Below are positions 1 to 8,625 of a stretch of 8,625 bases of DNA, one piece after another. The notes under the pieces were generated by a model. The model searched no databases. It had not been told where the DNA came from and saw only the letters and a list, made by a program, of their open reading frames with translations. How positions within the stretch are numbered: position 1 is the stretch's first letter; every line of letters starts with the position of its first letter. The stretch lies in the IMG/VR virus record IMGVR_UViG_2778261676_000003, positions 1 through 8,625 of that record; one strand, 5' to 3'. Source of the stretch: a virus (taxonomy: Duplodnaviria > Heunggongvirae > Uroviricota > Caudoviricetes). A program made the translations under genes and the position numbers.

Positions 1-201
1 TTACCCATTGGCGCGGCTTAAGAGCTTATTTTTGAATTCACAGTGGTCACGATATAACCATCTTGCTCGCCCGTGGATAACTTTGGCTTTTGGCAGGTCG
101 CCGGACTTAATCCGGTCGTAGATGAAGGTTTTACCGAAGCCAGTATCGGCCATGATGAATTTCAAATCAACCAGTGAATCAGGTTGTAGTTCGTGTTGCA
201 T
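1..201 (-). CDS. torI: Excisionase / recombination directionality factor of the AlpA-Xis winged-helix family (TorI-like, 66 aa)
   Basis: Complete 66-aa ORF (ATG at 199-201, TAA at 1-3). The translation MQHELQPDSLVDLKFIMADTGFGKTFIYDRIKSGDLPKAKVIHGRARWLYRDHCEFKNKLLSRANG has the AlpA/Xis helix-turn-helix signature and matches my recollection of E. coli K-12 TorI (the KplE1 excisionase). The gene symbol is from memory and should be confirmed by BLAST. Confidence 0.85.
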   Translation of the reverse strand: MQHELQPDSLVDLKFIMADTGFGKTFIYDRIKSGDLPKAKVIHGRARWLYRDHCEFKNKLLSRANG

Positions 202-220
202 GAGTGCTATCTCCGAATAG

Positions 221-236
221 GGAATCGAACCTGCAA
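221..236 (-). other. tRNA T-arm-like 16-mer (minus-strand TTGCAGGTTCGATTCC); candidate att-core relic or recombinase-site remnant
   Basis: Plus strand 221-236 ggaatcgaacctgcaa is the reverse complement of TTGCAGGTTCGATTCC, which contains the canonical tRNA T-loop GGTTCGATTCC. As I recall the sequence it is identical to the T-arm segment of E. coli tRNA-Arg(CCU) argW. The flanking bases do not complete a tRNA, as there is no matching acceptor stem or CCA end. Confidence 0.4.
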
Positions 237-243
237 ATCAGGC

Positions 244-268
244 AATAAAAAACCGCCATCAGGCGGCT
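244..268 (-). terminator. Rho-independent terminator (minus strand) downstream of ORF 310..510 and upstream of torI
   Basis: On the minus strand: CCGCC-TGAT-GGCGG hairpin (plus 253-266) followed directly by TTTTTTATT (plus A-run 247-252). Confidence 0.6.
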
Positions 269-309
269 TGGTGTTCTTTCAGTTCTTCAATTCGAATATT
301 GGTTACGTC

Positions 310-510
310 TTATTCGATGCGTACTCCTGGTATTTCGCCTTTTGATATTGCTAAGTCATAAATTTGCGCGGCACTATATCCATCTCGCATCCATGAATCT
401 AAGGCGCGAACAGCCTCGCTACGCTTTTTATCTTCTCTCTCATTTTTGATATCAACGAGGACATCAACGCAATTAAGGCAAATGTGGATTTTGTCCTTAC
501 ATTCGATCAT
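310..510 (-). CDS. Hypothetical small protein (66 aa), possibly the C-terminal remnant of a zinc-ribbon protein
   Basis: ATG-initiated ORF with a weak ribosome-binding site. The in-frame stretch just upstream of the ATG encodes CSLCGG, and the ORF contains CLNC, so a CxxC...CxxC zinc ribbon appears split by the start position. No confident family assignment. Confidence 0.3.
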   Translation of the reverse strand: MIECKDKIHICLNCVDVLVDIKNEREDKKRSEAVRALDSWMRDGYSAAQIYDLAISKGEIPGVRIE

Positions 511-618
511 GGCTGCTTTACCATGATTTCCGCCACACAGTGAGCATAAATCTTCAGGGTCTGACTGTTATTTCTGTAACGTTAAAGGGTTGAATGTTGA
601 ACAGGCCATAATCATCTC

Positions 619-646
619 CATAAAACAAAACTCGCCGTAGCGAGTT
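619..646 (-). terminator. Rho-independent terminator (minus strand) downstream of the 767..1260 small-gene operon
   Basis: On the minus strand: 7-bp stem AACTCGC / GCGAGTT (plus 629-635 and 640-646) with a 4-nt loop, followed by TTTTGTTTTA. It lies inside the track ORF 554..754, which argues against that ORF. Confidence 0.5.
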
Positions 647-766
647 CAGATAAAAGAAATCCCCGCGAGTGCGAGGATTGTTATTGTCTTTTCTTCGTGC
701 ATTTGTCGCACTTTCGGCACCATCCAGATAGGCACATCCGTCCGCAATTAACACATATAGGCCACA

Positions 767-1045
767 TCATTTTTCCTCTTTTGGTTTATGAATCTGAATG
801 GTCATGCCGCTTTGAGTGGTGACTACAATGACAGAACCAGGCTGAAGACTGTTAAGATTGAATGCTTCGTAAAACGAATCCAAGGCCAGCGCTTTTTTAT
901 TCTTTCGGTTCCACCAACGCCATCCCTTGCTACAGGCTACACTGACAATCCACTGCCCACTCCTGTAAGCCATATAAAACCAGATGAGCAAAACCTGAAG
1001 GAATGCTATCCAGTCAATAATCGTATATTTCGCGAAGGAGTCCAT
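767..1045 (-). CDS. Hypothetical small membrane protein (about 92 aa; one predicted transmembrane helix followed by a basic W/R/K-rich segment)
   Basis: Strong Shine-Dalgarno AGGAGGTG 5 nt upstream of the ATG at 1043-1045. The track places the start at the GTG at 1046-1048. The stop of the upstream ORF overlaps this start (TGATG), indicating translational coupling. Hydrophobic stretch TIIDWIAFLQVLLIWFYMAY, then KGWRWWNRKNKK. Confidence 0.6.
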   Translation of the reverse strand: MDSFAKYTIIDWIAFLQVLLIWFYMAYRSGQWIVSVACSKGWRWWNRKNKKALALDSFYEAFNLNSLQPGSVIVVTTQSGMTIQIHKPKEEK

Positions 1046-1260
1046 CACTTCACCTCCTGCTGCGGTGCTGCTGGCATTTCACGCCAGTGCGTAACTGAGT
1101 GCGGATCCGGATATTCGGTGCCATCATCCCAGCGATTGCCATTCCACATTGCAGACCACATCTCACCGTCTTCATACATGACCATTACCGGAATTAACTT
1201 ATCGCGCCAGAAGCGCAGCAGGCTATCAGATTTGCAGAGCGTGAAGGAGTTCCTCTGCAC
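1045..1260 (-). CDS. Hypothetical small Trp-rich, mildly acidic protein (up to 71 aa; start uncertain)
   Basis: ORF ends with TGA at 1045-1047, overlapping the start of the downstream membrane-protein gene. The track start at 1260 is a GTG with a poor ribosome-binding site. Internal ATGs (codons 26 and 28) would give a 44-46 aa product. Confidence 0.45.
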   Translation of the reverse strand: MQRNSFTLCKSDSLLRFWRDKLIPVMVMYEDGEMWSAMWNGNRWDDGTEYPDPHSVTHWREMPAAPQQEVK

Positions 1261-1299
1261 ACCACAGACCTGTTACAACCAACTTCCCGCGTCGGAAAA

Positions 1300-2463
1300 A
1301 TGGCGCAGACTACAGCAGAAAATATCCCTCTGGCTGGCACAAGCGGAATGAGAGCAACGCAACAGGAAGCGAGAAGCCAGTTGGTGCAGAGATTTGCTGA
1401 TAAATTTGGTGAGTATGATCCAGCGGTTGTTATTGACAGCCTTAAAGCGAAAACATCAGGAATTCGTCGTGCCGCCGGTAATCGACTGGAGCAGGTTCAG
1501 AATGCTATGGCTGGAGTAAACATTCAGCCTGTGCGAGCAATTCAGCAGATTGATACTGAGATATCTAACCTGCAGAAGCTTGGTAAGGTCGCTGATAACG
1601 AGACGATTTCAAAACTTCAATCCTATCGTGATGAGCTTGTTCGCAATGCTGGTCCTGATGGTCCGGTAAATCTGGATTTGAAGCAATTAAGCGATCTGCG
1701 CAGCCAGTTCAGAATGGATGTGAAGGGTGAGCGACCAGTGTTACCAAACCGTTCCGATGCTGCCATTCAGCGCGTTTACAAGGCAATGACTGACGATATC
1801 AATGGTGCCATTGGTCAGAATCTTGGCAACGATACTCTCCGTAAATATCAGCAGGCCAATGCCGTCTACGCTGACGAAGCGGCGAAACTAAAGAATACCA
1901 GGCTGAAGAATGTTCTCATGAAAGGCGACCTGACGCCGGAAGTTGTCAACAACATGCTATTCAGCAAGAACAAATCGGAAATTAAGACTCTGTATAACTC
2001 AGTTGGTCGTGTTGGCAGGGCGCAAATGCGCAATGGCATCATTGGAAAGGCAATGGAGAAATCTGGCGGATCCCCTGACCAGTTCCTTCGACAGCTTAAC
2101 ATCCTGCAAAACCAGACTGGCATCACATTTAAAGGTCAGGATGCTGCTTATCTGAAAGGATTAAAAAACTACCTGCAATCCACGCAGCAGGCTGCAAAAG
2201 CGGCAGTAACAACACCCACAGGGCAGCAAACTATTCCGTTCATTATAGGGTATGGGACGGCAATGAACCCGGCGACAACTGGCGCAGCAGTAAGCTACGG
2301 ACTTCTTACTCGCGCCTATGAGAGCGAGCCATTCAGAAATGCAATGCTCCGAATGGCAAACACCCCACGCGGATCAACAGCGTTTGAGAAAGCCATGCAG
2401 CAGGCACAAAAGGCCATTAACGCCCTGACTCAGGGGGCTAAGTCTGATGCGTTGTCAGAATAG
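1300..2463 (+). CDS. Hypothetical phage protein, 387 aa, Q/A/N-rich with predicted coiled regions; possibly a DNA-injection (ejection) protein-like remnant by synteny
   Basis: Long ORF with ATG at 1300 and TAG at 2461-2463, and a weak ribosome-binding site (GGA). It sits immediately upstream of mnt and the tailspike, the position gene 16 occupies in P22-like phages, and its composition resembles ejection proteins. The functional call is by position and composition only. Confidence 0.7.
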   Translation: MAQTTAENIPLAGTSGMRATQQEARSQLVQRFADKFGEYDPAVVIDSLKAKTSGIRRAAGNRLEQVQNAMAGVNIQPVRAIQQIDTEISNLQKLGKVADNETISKLQSYRDELVRNAGPDGPVNLDLKQLSDLRSQFRMDVKGERPVLPNRSDAAIQRVYKAMTDDINGAIGQNLGNDTLRKYQQANAVYADEAAKLKNTRLKNVLMKGDLTPEVVNNMLFSKNKSEIKTLYNSVGRVGRAQMRNGIIGKAMEKSGGSPDQFLRQLNILQNQTGITFKGQDAAYLKGLKNYLQSTQQAAKAAVTTPTGQQTIPFIIGYGTAMNPATTGAAVSYGLLTRAYESEPFRNAMLRMANTPRGSTAFEKAMQQAQKAINALTQGAKSDALSE

Positions 2464-2552: not shown

Positions 2553-2846
2553 TTAGCTGCTGTCTTTTTTATATAGCTCTTTGAGCGTATCAAAGACAAT
2601 TTTCTTAACCATATCAGATTGTTGTTCTGCCATACGCTCTGCATCGTCAATGTAAACTGATGCAGAGTTTTGTTTATCCAATGATTCCTCAATCGCTGCA
2701 ATTATCTCTGAGTTCAGCGACCTGTTATTCATCTTCGCACGCTGCTTAATTTTCGCGTGGAGTTCATGCGGAAGTCTCAAGTGAAACTGCGCCTCGTCGT
2801 ATTTGCTGTACATCCTTGATGCCTCACCAGTTGGGTGGAATGGCAT
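2553..2846 (-). CDS. mnt: Mnt-like ribbon-helix-helix (Arc/MetJ superfamily) transcriptional repressor
   Basis: Translation contains QFHLRLPHELHAKIKQRAKMNNRSLNSEIIAAIEESL (RHH motif) and the C-terminus DAERMAEQQSDMVKKIVFDTLKELYKKDSS, closely resembling the P22 Mnt C-terminus (...DAERLADEQSELVKKMVFDTLKDLYKK..) as I recall it. AGGT ribosome-binding site 4 nt before the ATG at 2844-2846. An alternative ATG at 2811-2813 would give 86 aa. Confidence 0.85.
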   Translation of the reverse strand: MPFHPTGEASRMYSKYDEAQFHLRLPHELHAKIKQRAKMNNRSLNSEIIAAIEESLDKQNSASVYIDDAERMAEQQSDMVKKIVFDTLKELYKKDSS

Positions 2847-2934
2847 CGTAACCTACTGGATAAATACTCAATAGTACCATTTCTGTATGCAATCACATCA
2901 TGGTTGCATCATATCATTCGTCTGGAGCAATGAA
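2847..2934. promoter_or_regulatory. Divergent intergenic region between mnt and the tailspike gene; contains an inverted repeat ATGCAA-N11-TTGCAT (2887-2909) as a candidate operator
   Basis: 88-bp AT-rich spacer between divergently oriented start codons, with 6-bp inverted-repeat arms. Promoter hexamers are not confidently assignable by eye. Confidence 0.35.
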
Positions 2935-5091
2935 ATGTCAGATATCACCGCAAATGTTGTGGTAAGCATGCCTTCGCAACTCTTCACTATGGCTCGTTCT
3001 TTTAAAGCCGTAGCCAATGGCAAAATTTATATCGGTAAAATTGACACTGACCCGGTAAATCCTGAAAACCAGATTCAGGTTTATGTGGAGAACGAAGACG
3101 GCTCTCACGTTCCTGTTTCGCAACCAATCATCATTAACGCTGCTGGTTACCCGGTATATAACGGACAGATTGCCAAGTTCGTAACTGTGCAAGGCCATTC
3201 TATGGCTGTTTATGATGCATACGGTGTGCAGCAGTTCTATTTTCCTAATGTGCTGAAGTATGACCCGGATCAGTTTTCTGCAGAATGGCTTGCCAAGATG
3301 TCTGCGCCTGATTCTTATGCATTATTTGGTACATTCTCATCAATAGCAGATCTACGAGCATTTACTGCATACTCATCAGTTAAGGAAAATGGAAGAGTCT
3401 ATGTTGATTCTTATCACCTTGGAACTGGTTATGGCGGAGGATATTTCCGCTGGAATTCAACCAGCACTGATACTGATGACGGAGGCTATACCATTAACCC
3501 AACTGGCAATACTGGAACAGGACGCTGGAAACGTGAATTCGTATCTGCATATTCAGCTCGCACAGTTTCGCCTTTAGAGTTCGGTGCTAAGATGAATGAC
3601 AGCACCTTCGATAGTGCCCCAGCGATCAATGCCGCCATTTCATACCTCAATCCTTACTTTGATGCCTCATATGACTCACATCAAGGCGGGGATGTAACCA
3701 TGCCTGCCGGGATGTTTTACATCAATGACACAATATACGGTTCTCCAAATGTAAGATTGATCGGTACTGGGGGAACGACCGGATTTAGATATTCACGTGC
3801 TGGGTGCTGCATCATCATATCCATGTCAACAATGGATGCAAACAAGGTACAATATGACACTGCTCCTTATAAAATCGACGGTACTGGTAGATATACTGAC
3901 ACCTCAACAGTGGATAATGGGCTGACAATAAGCCACGGCTATTACGGACAGTATTTAGAAAACTTGGTTTTTTTGGGAAATCCAGATCAAAAAGCCAACA
4001 TTCGTATCTGGCGAGTGCCAACGTCAAAGTTAATTGGTGTGGGAACATATGGCTGTCTAACCAACTTCTGGATTAGCGGTTCTTGGGGTACGGCAGTTGA
4101 AAATTGCTTTGCTCAAGGAGCAAAATACGCAACATTTTTGACTCCTCACACCACAGCACTAAACATTGTAGGTGGGTACTTCACTGGAAACACATCGCAA
4201 ACATGGGCAATGGGTTCTGCTCAGTGGTTCCACAGGACTGCCTCTGATTCAAATCGTCCAAATATTGCTTATGTAACAACATTCCTTTATGCGCATGATT
4301 CAGTTGATATCAATATGCATGGAGTTACTTGGGAGGGTTACTATAGGGATTTTGCTTTATTCTACTGCGGTAATGTTAACGTTTTTGGTGGCTATAACGA
4401 AAACTCTGTAATCCCTAGCTCCGAGTATGGTCACACAGTCTGGGTGCACTGTGTAGCCTCTAGGATTAATGCTTATGGAGTATTTCTAAATCATGGGTAT
4501 AAGGATTTCGCCGTTCAGTCAGGAAATTTAATTGACCCATCTACCGGGGCGTTAATCCCTTCTGAAATATCTAACATAAATCTTTATGACCCAAGAGTGG
4601 ACTCGAAGTTTTTACAGATAAACAAAGATCTTGGATACGGCGAATATAGTATATTCATTAGCTGCAAGCATCCTATAACATCAGATCTTGCTGTCACACT
4701 TGCCTCATTAAGAAACTACTCGGCCCAATTTGATGGCCTGCTTGATCAATACACTATGCGGGTTCCCTCAATAACTCCAAATGGAACAACAAGCTTTAGC
4801 TTCCAAATCAGTAATATATCTAGTAATGGTGAGTATAACGTGCGCTTTTTAGCCAGAAACTCTGGCGGCACTTTACATCAGGATATTAGATTTAAAATGC
4901 TAATTGGAAGCGTGGTGTCAGTGACAGGGGTGGAAGAGCGTTCGAAAGTAGGTACTGCAAGCTTGGGCTCACCTTCGGTTAGCTTTGCTTCTGGCACGGT
5001 AACGATAACCTTTAATGGGAATTCAGGACTATATTCTTTATACCGTGTGCAATGCTTGCCTGTTAACAATCAAGTTATTTACAGTTTCTGA
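2935..5091 (+). CDS. Phage tailspike protein: P22-type N-terminal head-binding domain fused to a divergent beta-helix-like receptor-binding/depolymerase domain (718 aa)
   Basis: N-terminus [59 protein letters not shown]...[11 protein letters not shown] closely parallels the P22 gp9 head-binding domain ([43 protein letters not shown]...). GGAG ribosome-binding site 7 nt upstream of the ATG at 2935; the track's upstream start at 2887 adds 16 residues not seen in homologs. Downstream [23 protein letters not shown] resembles the entry motif of pectate-lyase-like beta-helix depolymerases. Stop TGA at 5089-5091. Confidence 0.9.
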
Positions 5092-5131: not shown

Positions 5132-7024
5132 TCACAAAAGAGGGTTTTTATGATTTTTCAAGTAAATCTTAGCCAATTCTCTTGCGCCATAAACATTTAG
5201 ATGTGCATGATCCATGTAAATAAACCTTCCATTTAAATAAACCTTGCAGCCTGAATCCGTGCAAAGGATATCATTTGGGTCTATATAAACTGGTTCTTTG
5301 TAGGAATTCATGATTTCATCTAATGAAATGTTAACATTTACTTTTTTAGCAAGTTCACTGTGGTCATCATTTCCAGATGCAATGTCAGATTTAAACTTGT
5401 TGAATTCCTTATAATCCATACCATTTGGTCTAAGTATTACAATTAGTTTAGCACCATGTGATGATAGGTATTCAAGAGTGGATAAGATGTCGTAACCATC
5501 TGCCTTGAAGTAACTGTCATCATTACCCCAACTAGCCCCTACAATCACGTTTTTATAACCCCTAGCCAAATCAATCCTTTTTTTGTTATAGGATAGCTTT
5601 TCCTCGCTACGGTATTTTGAAACCTTTGTGCCCTCTCTATATGGATTTATATTCATAATTGGTGGGAGCGAGCTTGAAACAGTAACAGCGACTGATTTTC
5701 CTGCATCCTTAGCCAAATAATCAATGAACTCTATGTATGACCCTGCTATCGAATCACCGATCATTATGGTCTCTGGCTTTTTTGTTACATCTCCTATGAT
5801 GCATAAACCATCTTTAGTTAGTGAATAGCTATCATAGCACTGAGAGTATTTGACCTCAGACCTGTTCTCATTTGCAAAATCGTTATTGTTAAATCTATCT
5901 GGGAATCCTTTCTCTGAGGAAGCCCAGAGGAAAATAAGTGAGAAAATTACAAGAGGAAGAATTAATAGAAGCAAGAGCGAAGGCAAGAATCCCATCTTAA
6001 ACTTGCGCACCTTAGTTTCAAAAGCATAAAAGTTGAATATAGAGAGAGCGATTGTTAGTATCAATACCACAAATTTAACAAAAATAGTGAACTCAACACC
6101 CCTATAATTAAGTAGGGCAATTATAGGCCAATGCCACAAATACATTGAATAAGAGATTTTGCCAATGAATATAACTGGTTTTAAACTTAAAACTCTGTTA
6201 ACAATTGGTGTAAAGGATTGATTGGCTCCAGCGATTATTATTAATGCCGCACCCACGCAAGGTATCAAAGCATTATAGCCAGGGAACAAGCTTTCTTTCT
6301 CTATTGAGAAAGAGCTAAATGCAATTAATGTTATACCTAAAATAGAGAAGGCGTTTGATACTTTTGTGGATTCAAATTTGTAATTACTTAGTAATATTGA
6401 AATAACGCCACCAATCATCAACTCAAAAGCCCTGAATGGGAGCATGTAGTATGCAAGCGATGTATATATAAGTGCGCCGTATTGCGAAACAGCAAACAAA
6501 GCAATTATTATCAAAACAAAGATCTGAAGCTCATACTTTCTAAATTTCAATATCACAAATGAAATTATCAAAGGTGCAATTAGATAGTACTGTTCCTCGA
6601 CGGATAAAGACCACGTGTGAAGAAGAGGGATCTGATCGGCGTTCCCTGAGAAATAGCTTGTAGTGTTGAAGTAAAAAAGGAAATTACTGATAGAAAGAAG
6701 AGTGAATATTGCGCTTTTGATCATGTATATAAACTCATCAGGCATCAATATGAAAATTGATGCGACTAATGTTGTAAATAACACGACCAATAAAGATGGC
6801 AAAATTCTCTTGATTCTTCTGTTGTAAAACCCTGAGTATGTGAAACTTCCGTTAGAAATTTCCTTTCTTATTATGGAGGTTATTAGATACCCAGAGATTA
6901 CAAAGAAAATATCTACCCCGATAAATCCGCCCGTAATGAACTGGCTACCAACATGATAGACTATTACCAATAGAACGGCTACTGCACGCAAGCCGTCAAT
7001 GTCTGGTCTATATCTAATCTCCAT
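5132..7024 (-). CDS. Integral-membrane O-acetyltransferase, acyltransferase-3 family with a C-terminal SGNH domain (OafA/Oac-like; likely O-antigen acetylation / serotype conversion), 630 aa
   Basis: N-terminal motif RPDIDGLRAVAVLLVIVYH and multiple hydrophobic segments typical of the acyltransferase-3 fold. C-terminal GDS (IGDSIA) and DHAH blocks typical of SGNH esterase-like domains. ATG at 7022-7024 with a GGGA ribosome-binding site. The gene looks AT-rich by eye. Confidence 0.9.
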   Translation of the reverse strand: MEIRYRPDIDGLRAVAVLLVIVYHVGSQFITGGFIGVDIFFVISGYLITSIIRKEISNGSFTYSGFYNRRIKRILPSLLVVLFTTLVASIFILMPDEFIYMIKSAIFTLLSISNFLFYFNTTSYFSGNADQIPLLHTWSLSVEEQYYLIAPLIISFVILKFRKYELQIFVLIIIALFAVSQYGALIYTSLAYYMLPFRAFELMIGGVISILLSNYKFESTKVSNAFSILGITLIAFSSFSIEKESLFPGYNALIPCVGAALIIIAGANQSFTPIVNRVLSLKPVIFIGKISYSMYLWHWPIIALLNYRGVEFTIFVKFVVLILTIALSIFNFYAFETKVRKFKMGFLPSLLLLLILPLVIFSLIFLWASSEKGFPDRFNNNDFANENRSEVKYSQCYDSYSLTKDGLCIIGDVTKKPETIMIGDSIAGSYIEFIDYLAKDAGKSVAVTVSSSLPPIMNINPYREGTKVSKYRSEEKLSYNKKRIDLARGYKNVIVGASWGNDDSYFKADGYDILSTLEYLSSHGAKLIVILRPNGMDYKEFNKFKSDIASGNDDHSELAKKVNVNISLDEIMNSYKEPVYIDPNDILCTDSGCKVYLNGRFIYMDHAHLNVYGARELAKIYLKNHKNPLL

Positions 7025-7467: not shown

Positions 7468-8625
7468 TCACTCCACCTTTTCATCAATCCAGTCCGCCCA
7501 CCATTGCATCATTTCTCTGCGTTTATCGAGATACTGAGCATGGTTGTAAATCCCACGCACAGAACCGCCGTTGGCATGTGCCAGTTGCACTTCAATAGCA
7601 TCAGCAGGCCATTCGTGCTCGTTCATAATCGTGCTGAATTCATGCCTGAATCCGTGACCGCTTTCCAGACCCTCATAGCCGATTTGTTTGATCACAAGTA
7701 GCACCGCGTTCTCGCAGATTGGCTTTTTCTTATCGTTGCGCCCGGCAAAAACAAACTCTGATACTGGTTTAGTGATGGAGCTTAGCGTAGTGAGAAGTTC
7801 AACCACCTGGTCCGACATCGGGACCACATGAATTTTGCGTCCCTTCATCACACTGGCGTCGATGGTGATAATCCTGTTTTCAAAATCGACGTTCTTCCAT
7901 TGCATGGAACGAAGCTCTTTTGTTCTTAGGGCTGTGTAGCGTAAAACCTTGGTCGCAATGAGCGATACGATGCTTCCTGAAAATGTTGCCAGTGCTTTGT
8001 TAAATGCCGGGATCTGGTCTGCAGGAAGAAACGGGAAGTTTTTCTTGCGGTATCCCTTCATGGCGTCAGCAAGGTCAGGTGCCGGGTTATATTTAGCCCT
8101 ACCAGTGACAATGGCGTAACGGAAAACCTCGCCGCATCTTCTGCGGGCTTTGTTGGCTCGCTCCATTGCACCGCGATCTTCAAATCTGCGGATTACTTCC
8201 AGCAGTTGCATCGGCTCAATATCCTGAATCTCAAGACCGCCGATGATAGGTAAAATGTCGTCATCAAACATTTTTGCAAGTTCATTTGCATAGCCTACTG
8301 ACCAGACTTGCTTCTTGTGCTCGTACCATTCCTTGTAAATCGCACTAAAGGAATTGTTGTTAGACGAAGCCTTTTTCGCCTTTACCGGATCGATGCCGAC
8401 CGAGATGTCTTTCCTCGCAGTCCATGCTTTATCCCTTGCCTCCTGCAAAGTCATAAGCGGATATTTTCCGACGGTCAGTATTTTTTCCTTACCGTCAATC
8501 TTGTAGCGAAGCTGCCATACCTTTTTCCCGGATACAGGAACATAAAGGTACAGGCCATTACCATCGAGAAGGCGGTATGGTTTTTCTTTCGGCTTTGCTG
8601 CTTCAATCTGCTTAACGGTGAGCAT
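7468..8625 (-). CDS. intS: Tyrosine site-specific integrase with an N-terminal arm-binding (DUF4102-type) domain, P4/CP4-57/IntS family (385 aa)
   Basis: N-terminus MLTVKQIEAAKPKEKPYRLLDGNGLYLYVPVSGKKVWQLRYKIDGKEK is the characteristic arm-binding domain of P4-type integrases. C-terminal catalytic-domain residues include ...HGFRHEFST... and ...LAHANGGSVRGIYNH.... The sequence matches my recollection of E. coli K-12 IntS, so the symbol should be confirmed by BLAST. The start codon is the last three bases of the window. Confidence 0.92.
   Translation of the reverse strand: MLTVKQIEAAKPKEKPYRLLDGNGLYLYVPVSGKKVWQLRYKIDGKEKILTVGKYPLMTLQEARDKAWTARKDISVGIDPVKAKKASSNNNSFSAIYKEWYEHKKQVWSVGYANELAKMFDDDILPIIGGLEIQDIEPMQLLEVIRRFEDRGAMERANKARRRCGEVFRYAIVTGRAKYNPAPDLADAMKGYRKKNFPFLPADQIPAFNKALATFSGSIVSLIATKVLRYTALRTKELRSMQWKNVDFENRIITIDASVMKGRKIHVVPMSDQVVELLTTLSSITKPVSEFVFAGRNDKKKPICENAVLLVIKQIGYEGLESGHGFRHEFSTIMNEHEWPADAIEVQLAHANGGSVRGIYNHAQYLDKRREMMQWWADWIDEKVE

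Follow-up and report, generated by a model that had tools for sequence, protein, structure and literature searches.

We found that a 16-nt sequence located just upstream of the ribosome-binding site of the excisionase gene torI, in a KplE1/CPS-53-like prophage, is identical to a segment of the tRNA gene argW into which such elements integrate. Because many distantly related phages retain its central ten bases at the same position, this box is probably a control site for excision, previously unstudied, rather than a decaying scar. It is a cis site of the recombination module that has been either unannotated or mis-annotated until now. Of the options raised in an earlier note on this DNA, the one best supported by the comparative data is that a recombinase would bind a site within the torI regulatory region. 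We favor a protein-binding operator that would tune torI and be read by TorI or by the integrase IntS, with the two binders about equally likely, and we give this reading a probability of roughly 45%. The box thus bears on how expression of the recombination directionality factor (RDF) is controlled in this prophage class. As a conserved, unannotated element right upstream of the torI ribosome-binding site, it offers a concrete and mutable candidate for control of the excision switch, and, being identical to part of the target tRNA gene, it may be read by the recombination proteins themselves.

Genomic Context of the Box

The window, i.e., the whole 8,625-nt stretch of DNA that was analyzed, is the body of a KplE1/CPS-53-like, P22/Sf6-type defective prophage, and it ends exactly at the start of intS (8625) and at the stop codon of torI (1). 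The two genes are encoded on the minus strand at opposite ends of the window, and in the circular form the order of genes and sites is box, torI, P arm, core, P' arm, and intS (Table 1). Prophages of the KplE1, Sf6, and HK620 types all have int and xis at opposite ends and transcribe them separately. TorI is a repressor of the intS promoter PintS, and control of excision has been attributed to expression of the RDF gene, by a mechanism that the authors left unexplained (PMC2951348).

The terminator preceding the box is the last element that the window has in common with Stx phages. Homology of the 933W type stops at 244, and Stx phages (933W, VT2-Sakai) share the upstream ORF and the terminator up to this position. 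In HK620-type phages, homology is found only from approximately 306-310 onward (hairpin, leader, and torI), and in both Sf6 and HK620 the hairpin, the 16-mer, and torI are identical to those in the window. Mosaic joints are thus located at 244 and at 306-310 and, judged from these homologies, the 66-aa ORF and torI are separate mosaic modules.

With regard to the remainder of the window, the best single-place match in any complete E. coli genome covers at most 46% of it. The ORFs at 788-2463 have no Pfam match, and related E. coli records carry DNA-transfer/ejection and lytic-transglycosylase genes there. TorI itself falls below the Pfam threshold (Phage_AlpA, E = 0.12; HTH_17, E = 0.008), and related excisionases are routinely annotated as AlpA/COG3311.

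Table 1. Coordinates of the box, neighboring features in the window, and related sites at other loci.
Feature	Position	Strand	Remarks
torI (66 aa), RDF	1..201	-	Identical to PDB 1Z4H
torI Shine-Dalgarno sequence, GGAG	211..214	-	Inside the conserved block CGGAGATA
Invariant decamer, GTTCGATTCC	221..230	-	Part of the 16-mer kept across genera
attB left (B) half-site sequence, GATTCC	226..221	-	Inside the decamer
TorI-type pentamer, GTTCG	230..226	-	Inside the decamer
16-mer, TTGCAGGTTCGATTCC	221..236 (read 236..221)	-	Identical to argW tRNA-Arg(CCU) nt 46-61
HK620-annotated cII-binding site, TTGCctgatTTGC	233..245; L003 2062-2074	-	Second TTGC is the start of the 16-mer
Intrinsic terminator	244..269	-	Stem 269..250, then T-tract to ~244
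66-aa ORF upstream of torI	310..510	-	Common to Sf6 gene 19 and 933W L0063
Two more strong intrinsic-terminator-like hairpins	628-679	-	Back to back, amid small early-left ORFs
ORFs	788-2463	+	
Arc/Mnt-type repressor	2553-2846	-	In prophage remnant
Tailspike	2887-5091	+	P22 head-binding domain
AT3+SGNH acyltransferase	5132-7024	-	Adjoins intS
intS integrase, partner of torI	7468..8625	-	Arm-binding, central, and catalytic domains
Leader argW copy in K-12	L238 10076-10091		No annotation
attR core in K-12 (pawZ)	L238 10385-10399		Annotated as argW pseudogene fragment
(G/C)TTCGAT heptamer, K-12 intB leader	L237 330-350		
(G/C)TTCGAT heptamer, P4 int leader	L479 3926-3965		

Identity of the 16-mer to argW and Position Relative to the Attachment Core

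Aligned to argW, the 16-mer matches at 16 of 16 positions, uninterrupted and in the same orientation, and spans the end of the variable loop, the 5' strand of the T-stem, the T-loop, and the first two bases of the 3' T-stem strand. The argW sequence (GTCCTCTTAGTTAAATGGATATAACGAGCCCCTCCTAAGGGCTAATTGCAGGTTCGATTCCTGCAGGGGACACCA) was that of K-12 and of a 98%-identical E. coli locus (L001). In both of these, the 16-mer occurs twice, upstream of torI and inside argW, each time on the same strand as torI and intS; the match to the integration target that the earlier note had pointed out is therefore correct. Within the window, the 16-mer has no further copy, even when up to three mismatches are allowed (0.06 matches expected from shuffled sequences). 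It is not part of an intact tRNA, as had also been recognized: ARAGORN found no tRNA gene in the window, an Rfam search of the window gave no match at E<=1, and the T-stem is left open, as the bases 3' of the 16-mer are CCCTA where argW has CCTGC. Reading along the minus strand, the terminator is followed by 7 nt (GCCTGAT), the 16-mer, 6 nt, the GGAG, and the torI start codon at 201. Two details of the earlier description are thereby corrected: 7 nt lie between the T-tract of the terminator and the 16-mer, and the gap to the ATG is 19 nt instead of 20.

The 16-mer is a common T-arm word and is not diagnostic of argW by itself. Among the 120 IMG/VR occurrences listed, 33 are in torI leaders and 18 in argW-like tRNA-Arg genes; of the remaining 69, 34 have a T-stem closed by CCTGC and 35 were binned as "other." The examples inspected from both of these bins, a subset of the 69, are T-arm-like and apparently belong to other tRNA genes. 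The torI leader is the only clearly non-tRNA context of the word among the matches listed.

In K-12, the leader copy is a larger argW fragment than pawZ. We found no mention of it in the two open-access KplE1 papers, one of them PMC2951348. With it, the K-12 CPS-53/KplE1 map gains a second argW fragment, internal to the prophage, in addition to pawZ.

The published KplE1 core is CTGCAGGGGACACCAT (PMC2951348), which corresponds to argW nt 61-75 plus T and is located approximately 73 nt downstream of the torI stop codon, outside the window, in L001, K-12, Sf6, and HK620. The 16-mer (nt 46-61) and the core are contiguous in argW and have only C61 in common. A KplE1-type att core is duplicated at both prophage ends and common to attP and attB, and the 16-mer is not. 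The earlier suggestion of an att-core relic does not hold for this sequence, whereas the accompanying remark on its location was accurate: the sequence is 5' of torI, the "wrong" side for a core that marks a prophage end. The core is palindromic (GATGTC-TGCAGGG-GACACC), and this palindromy suggests that the 7-bp overlap is TGCAGGG and that the left half-site of attB is GATTCC, the last six bases of the 16-mer, which would place that half-site exactly at the 3' end of the box. A 7-bp overlap and inverted half-sites are absent at the box itself, where the next bases, CTATTCG and GAGATA, are identical to the overlap at 0 of 7 positions and to the right half-site GACACC at 3 of 6.

Conservation of the Box Across Phages and Genera

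We gathered xis-attP-int modules from GenBank phages, one-genome-per-species contigs, and IMG/VR, and obtained 121 distinct leaders; as the first IMG/VR search with a TorI alignment returned only 100%-identical TorI, diverged queries were used to reach the others. The decamer is exact in 69 of the 121 leaders, and together with the variant GTTCGATTTCC it is present in 86. In the box-carrying leaders, which come from Escherichia, Salmonella, Erwinia, Serratia, Pantoea, Edwardsiella, and Enterobacter- and Klebsiella-type elements, the motif ends 16-20 nt from the excisionase ATG and 5-7 nt upstream of the Shine-Dalgarno sequence. Erwinia phage phiEt88, with a TorI identity of 36-39%, has AGGTTCGATTCCC 19 nt before the ATG, and the Salmonella phages g341c and Emek (TorI identity 45-52%) have AAGTTCGATTCCC. 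All 16 bases are found only in the E. coli lineage, and most other lineages keep CAGGTTCGATTCC. A Serratia leader (L015) has CAGGTTCGATTCCTG, in which the identity continues into the 3' T-stem strand (CCTG), and the Edwardsiella leader, ACAGGTTCGATTCCCTGT, keeps a T-arm-like ACAGG...CCTGT hairpin; these two leaders indicate an ancestral complete T-arm.

The 5' flanks of the box are unrelated in more than eight contexts, while the 3' side is common (CGGAGAT(A/G)AAACC-ATG), so the common sequence starts at the box. The box is also found in tandem duplicate, with a period of 16 nt in the Midgardsormr38 type and of 13 nt in L225. Among 86 E. coli-type leaders with identical TorI, there are 0.31 minor alleles per site in the 16-mer, compared to 3.69 at third-codon positions of torI and 3.2 just upstream, i.e., variation in the box is approximately 12-fold below that of the third-codon positions. 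The decamer also forms the invariant columns of an alignment of 17 diverse leaders, in which RNAalifold found no conserved pairs; the box therefore appears to act as primary sequence. A stem of 4-5 bp is kept in only a few lineages (L015, L021). Approximately 30% of the leaders have no box, with clean absence in two loci (L017, L033), suggesting that the box is modulatory and not essential.

We observed no covariation between the T-stem-like 5' flank of the box and the first bases of the att core (Edwardsiella has ACAGG with the core TGCAGG), and the T-arm is unchanged in the Edwardsiella-type argW. When leaders carrying other T-loop variants were sought with a pattern scan, the 120 matches listed for that scan included only one singleton, already known. 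As for relatives that use other tRNA genes and have a xis-attP-int layout, F116-type phages are arranged differently, Acinetobacter AM106 has no intergenic leader because the xis start abuts the upstream ORF, and VW-6S and YeP6 have no xis upstream.

These data also bear on a passive origin and persistence of the box. It is conceivable, though in our judgment unlikely, that the box is a T-arm joint produced when an aberrant Int reaction or illegitimate recombination at the tRNA gene fused the xis-attP-int module (or a remnant argW::torI) to the phage backbone, and that it persists by linkage to torI and has no present function. The full argW identity in E. coli would fit such a joint, as would the T-arm features of the Serratia and Edwardsiella leaders, the location at a mosaic module boundary with Stx-phage homology ending 7 nt upstream, the fact that argW identity in E. 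coli stops at the predicted Int cleavage position, and the leaders that manage without the box. However, a scar would not be expected to keep the decamer invariant while the adjoining leader, the P arm, and TorI (down to 36-39% identity) diverged, nor to stay intact each time its 5' flanks were replaced, to be duplicated with two different periods, or to have a diversity far below that of synonymous sites. The decaying relic of an earlier or tandem integration that had been proposed is a poor fit to a decamer that is invariant at a fixed distance from the ATG in front of TorI homologs that are only 36-52% identical.

TorI and IntS as Candidate Readers of the Box

In the operator reading that we favor, a copy of the argW T-arm was captured, and its central decamer would have been retained in the excisionase leader as a box that is sequence specific and probably binds protein, placed upstream of the Shine-Dalgarno sequence and just downstream of the intrinsic terminator. 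The recombination module's own proteins might thereby set the level of TorI, the expression of which is the deciding factor for excision in this prophage class. One option is that TorI binds the box in its own leader, giving negative feedback at the level of DNA or leader RNA. Alternatively, IntS may bind through its core-binding and catalytic domains, so that torI would be held down in the lysogen; such repression of torI by IntS would complement the known repression of intS by TorI. No sigma-70-like promoter was found in window 1-800, and a by-eye check of both strands gave no acceptable match to the IHF site WATCAANNNNTTR. An N-terminal extension of TorI through the box was considered and rejected: GSIP can be read in frame in three lineages, but the window has an in-frame TGA ahead of it, and other lineages do not keep the frame.

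For TorI, five binding sites (I1-I5) have been described in attL, with the cores GTTCG, GATCG, and GTCCG (Panis et al., PLoS Genet 2010, PMC2951348), and the box contains an exact GTTCG. The box region of the window has this one GTTCG plus an ATTCG 12 nt downstream, and tandem copies are found only in relatives, with the 16- and 13-nt periods given above. Other observations argue against TorI. The identical T-loop sequence in attL is not among the five listed TorI sites (PMC2951348), and the box does not covary with the DNA specificity of the RDF. Whereas the repeats in the P' arm change with the recognition helix of the RDF, the leader box is constant and has a similar frequency in all classes, remaining GTTCGATTCC where the P'-arm repeats have switched. 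P'-arm GTTCG repeats are associated with the helix types GFGKTFIY, GMGKTFIY, and GYTAKYFY; RTTACC with GFTAKYFY and GFTSKYFY; and inverted GGTTCT with GF(T/S)DRYFY. Examples of these P' arms are GTTCG in L002/L003, RTTACC/GTAACC in L130/L134/L137 and L009, and inverted GGTTCT/CGAAC in L172/L173/L165. This natural covariation of repeat and helix might offer a way to decipher how TorI-type excisionases recognize DNA.

IntS would be favored as the reader because it is the only protein whose reaction logic requires recognition of this exact sequence, the attB left half-site, to which the box is identical up to the inferred cleavage position (..GGTTCGATTCC, followed by TGCAGGG in argW). The integrases of these modules also all have the same target, which would explain the invariance of the box. 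Arguing against IntS, no drift of the box toward GRTGT(C/A), the stronger core-type consensus found at C and C', is ever seen, a one-base insertion (GATTTCC) is common, and the box has neither a partner half-site nor identity to the overlap.

A more specific proposal, which we consider unlikely, is that the box deliberately imitates the tRNA-gene half of attB. IntS, made constitutively in the lysogen, would then bind this half-site in the torI leader as a decoy and prevent expression of the excisionase, with a possible bridge to the arm-type site GCGGGTAAAAT right after the torI stop codon. If true, mutual repression of torI by IntS and of intS by TorI would form a toggle that decides between the integrated and excised states and, more broadly, T-loop copies of the target tRNA could be regulatory operators in tRNA-targeting integration modules.

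RNA-Level, Attachment-Site, and Promoter Explanations

The box might instead function as RNA, with GUUCGAUUCC in the torI mRNA leader affecting translation or stability through partial occlusion of the Shine-Dalgarno sequence (UUCG:CGGA), as a processing site, or by being recognized by an RNA-binding protein, as has been suggested for Vis on the P4 int leader. The box is always on the sense strand and at a constant 5-7 nt upstream of the Shine-Dalgarno sequence, and the minimum-free-energy fold of the window pairs UUCGA with UCGGA and buries the AUG. There is also precedent for action of an RDF on an mRNA leader (cited in PMC2951348). The possible Shine-Dalgarno pairing, however, amounts to just 4 bp over a loop of approximately 10 nt, no secondary structure is conserved among the 17 leaders, the T-stem is unclosed in most lineages, and no Rfam family matches, and thus we regard an RNA-level role as quite improbable. 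In the E. coli leader fold (window 190-245, minus strand), UUCGA pairs with UCGGA of the Shine-Dalgarno region and UUGC/CUG pair with the surroundings of the AUG, and other genera do not have this pairing. The z-score of the leader fold is -2.4 for an 86-nt stretch that includes the terminator.

There is very little to recommend the idea that the box is a functional att site, whether secondary or ancestral, or one half of a longer attP identity block that became detached when torI was inserted. The contiguity of the 16-mer and the core in argW, with torI and the P arm exactly between their counterparts in the phage, would be the signature of such a split. However, attP in most lineages reads (A/T)TTCGATGT(A/C) followed by TGCAGGG, a T-loop homolog in register with GGTTCGATTCC and TGCAGGG of argW. 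Because attP already has its own T-loop homolog beside the core, the leader 16-mer is a second T-arm copy and not one half of a split attP. Moreover, the box is followed by CTATTCG in place of the overlap TGCAGGG, so that strand exchange with attB is not expected, and in Serratia and Pantoea the tRNA identity extends past the supposed break. The specific version in which torI was inserted into a 30-nt tRNA identity block was ruled out by the same T-loop homolog in attP and by the Serratia and Pantoea identity.

CII sites of lambda and P22 have the canonical form TTGC-N6-TTGC. It is most improbable that the TTGC repeat at the box binds cII as part of a pI promoter driving torI-attP-int during the establishment of lysogeny, with the T-arm likeness incidental: the GenBank records of HK620 and Sf6 do annotate exactly this spot, but the spacing is N5 instead of N6, 22 of 86 E. 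coli-type leaders have TTAC in place of the first TTGC, lineages other than that of E. coli keep the decamer but not the TTGC pair, window 1-800 has no -10/-35 match, and such a promoter would co-express the excisionase with int, the wrong combination for integration.

Comparison With Known Systems

The leaders of P4 int, K-12 intB (leuX), and several argW-linked integrases, among them second integrases of the tandem arrays described below, contain a related heptamer, (G/C)TTCGAT (sometimes GTTCAAT), just before the int start and between two direct and one inverted arm-type repeats. It does not track the target T-stem and is absent from CP4-57 intA (L239). In P4, both Int and the RDF Vis are reported repressors of int (PMC2951348). 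Judged by sequence and placement, the P4-family heptamer may be the same kind of box as that in the torI leader: in both, TTCGAT stands next to the start codon in a recombination-gene leader. They differ in that the P4-family box is flanked by inverted arm-type sites, lacks the TCC extension, and shows no T-stem tracking.

Many of the loci are tandem arrays at argW, in which the core on the torI side leads directly into the P' arm and the start of a different P4-family integrase (L012, L019, L022, L043, L048, L049, L068, L074, L106, L122, L143, L225, L228, L233, and others). These second integrases are only 31-48% identical to IntS, and the arm-type words, one per integrase type, are GATGGTAT, GGGGCAT, CGGGTAT, GTGTATAAC, TGGGGGC, and GTTGGTAT.

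Compared to the TorI sites I1-I5 of KplE1 attL, the box has the exact GTTCG with a purine-rich prefix (cAGGTTCG, vs. tGGTTCG in I4 and cAGTTCG in I1 and I3) and belongs to the same recombination module, in which TorI is a known repressor at such sites. By contrast, it is a single site in the torI leader and not an array spaced by 11 bp in the P' arm, its conservation runs 5 nt past the pentamer, and it does not vary along with RDF specificity. The left core-type (B) half-site of attB and attL in argW matches the box up to the predicted cleavage, but the box lacks the identity to the overlap region and the inverted partner half-site, and it cannot be a recombination substrate because it is located approximately 300 bp from the real core.

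The annotations in the HK620 and Sf6 records cover the same nucleotides as the box. For HK620, a putative promoter ("phage integration") and a protein_bind feature for cII are annotated, and the record of Sf6 gives "pI; possible integrase expression promoter" as part of the boundary sequence bsq2. They rest on a TTGC-N5-TTGC resemblance that is polymorphic and confined to one lineage, and they mention neither the tRNA identity nor the conservation of the decamer across genera. The cII-activated pI annotation of this spot is poorly supported, and the present data correct a 20-year-old database annotation. Finally, pawZ, at the K-12 KplE1 attR, resembles the leader copy in being a partial argW copy at the torI end of the prophage and in the same orientation. 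However, pawZ is the 15-nt crossover core (argW 61-75) made by integration. The leader copy, in contrast, corresponds to argW 46-61 and lies within the prophage; K-12 has no annotation for it, and free phages such as Sf6 and HK620 carry it along.
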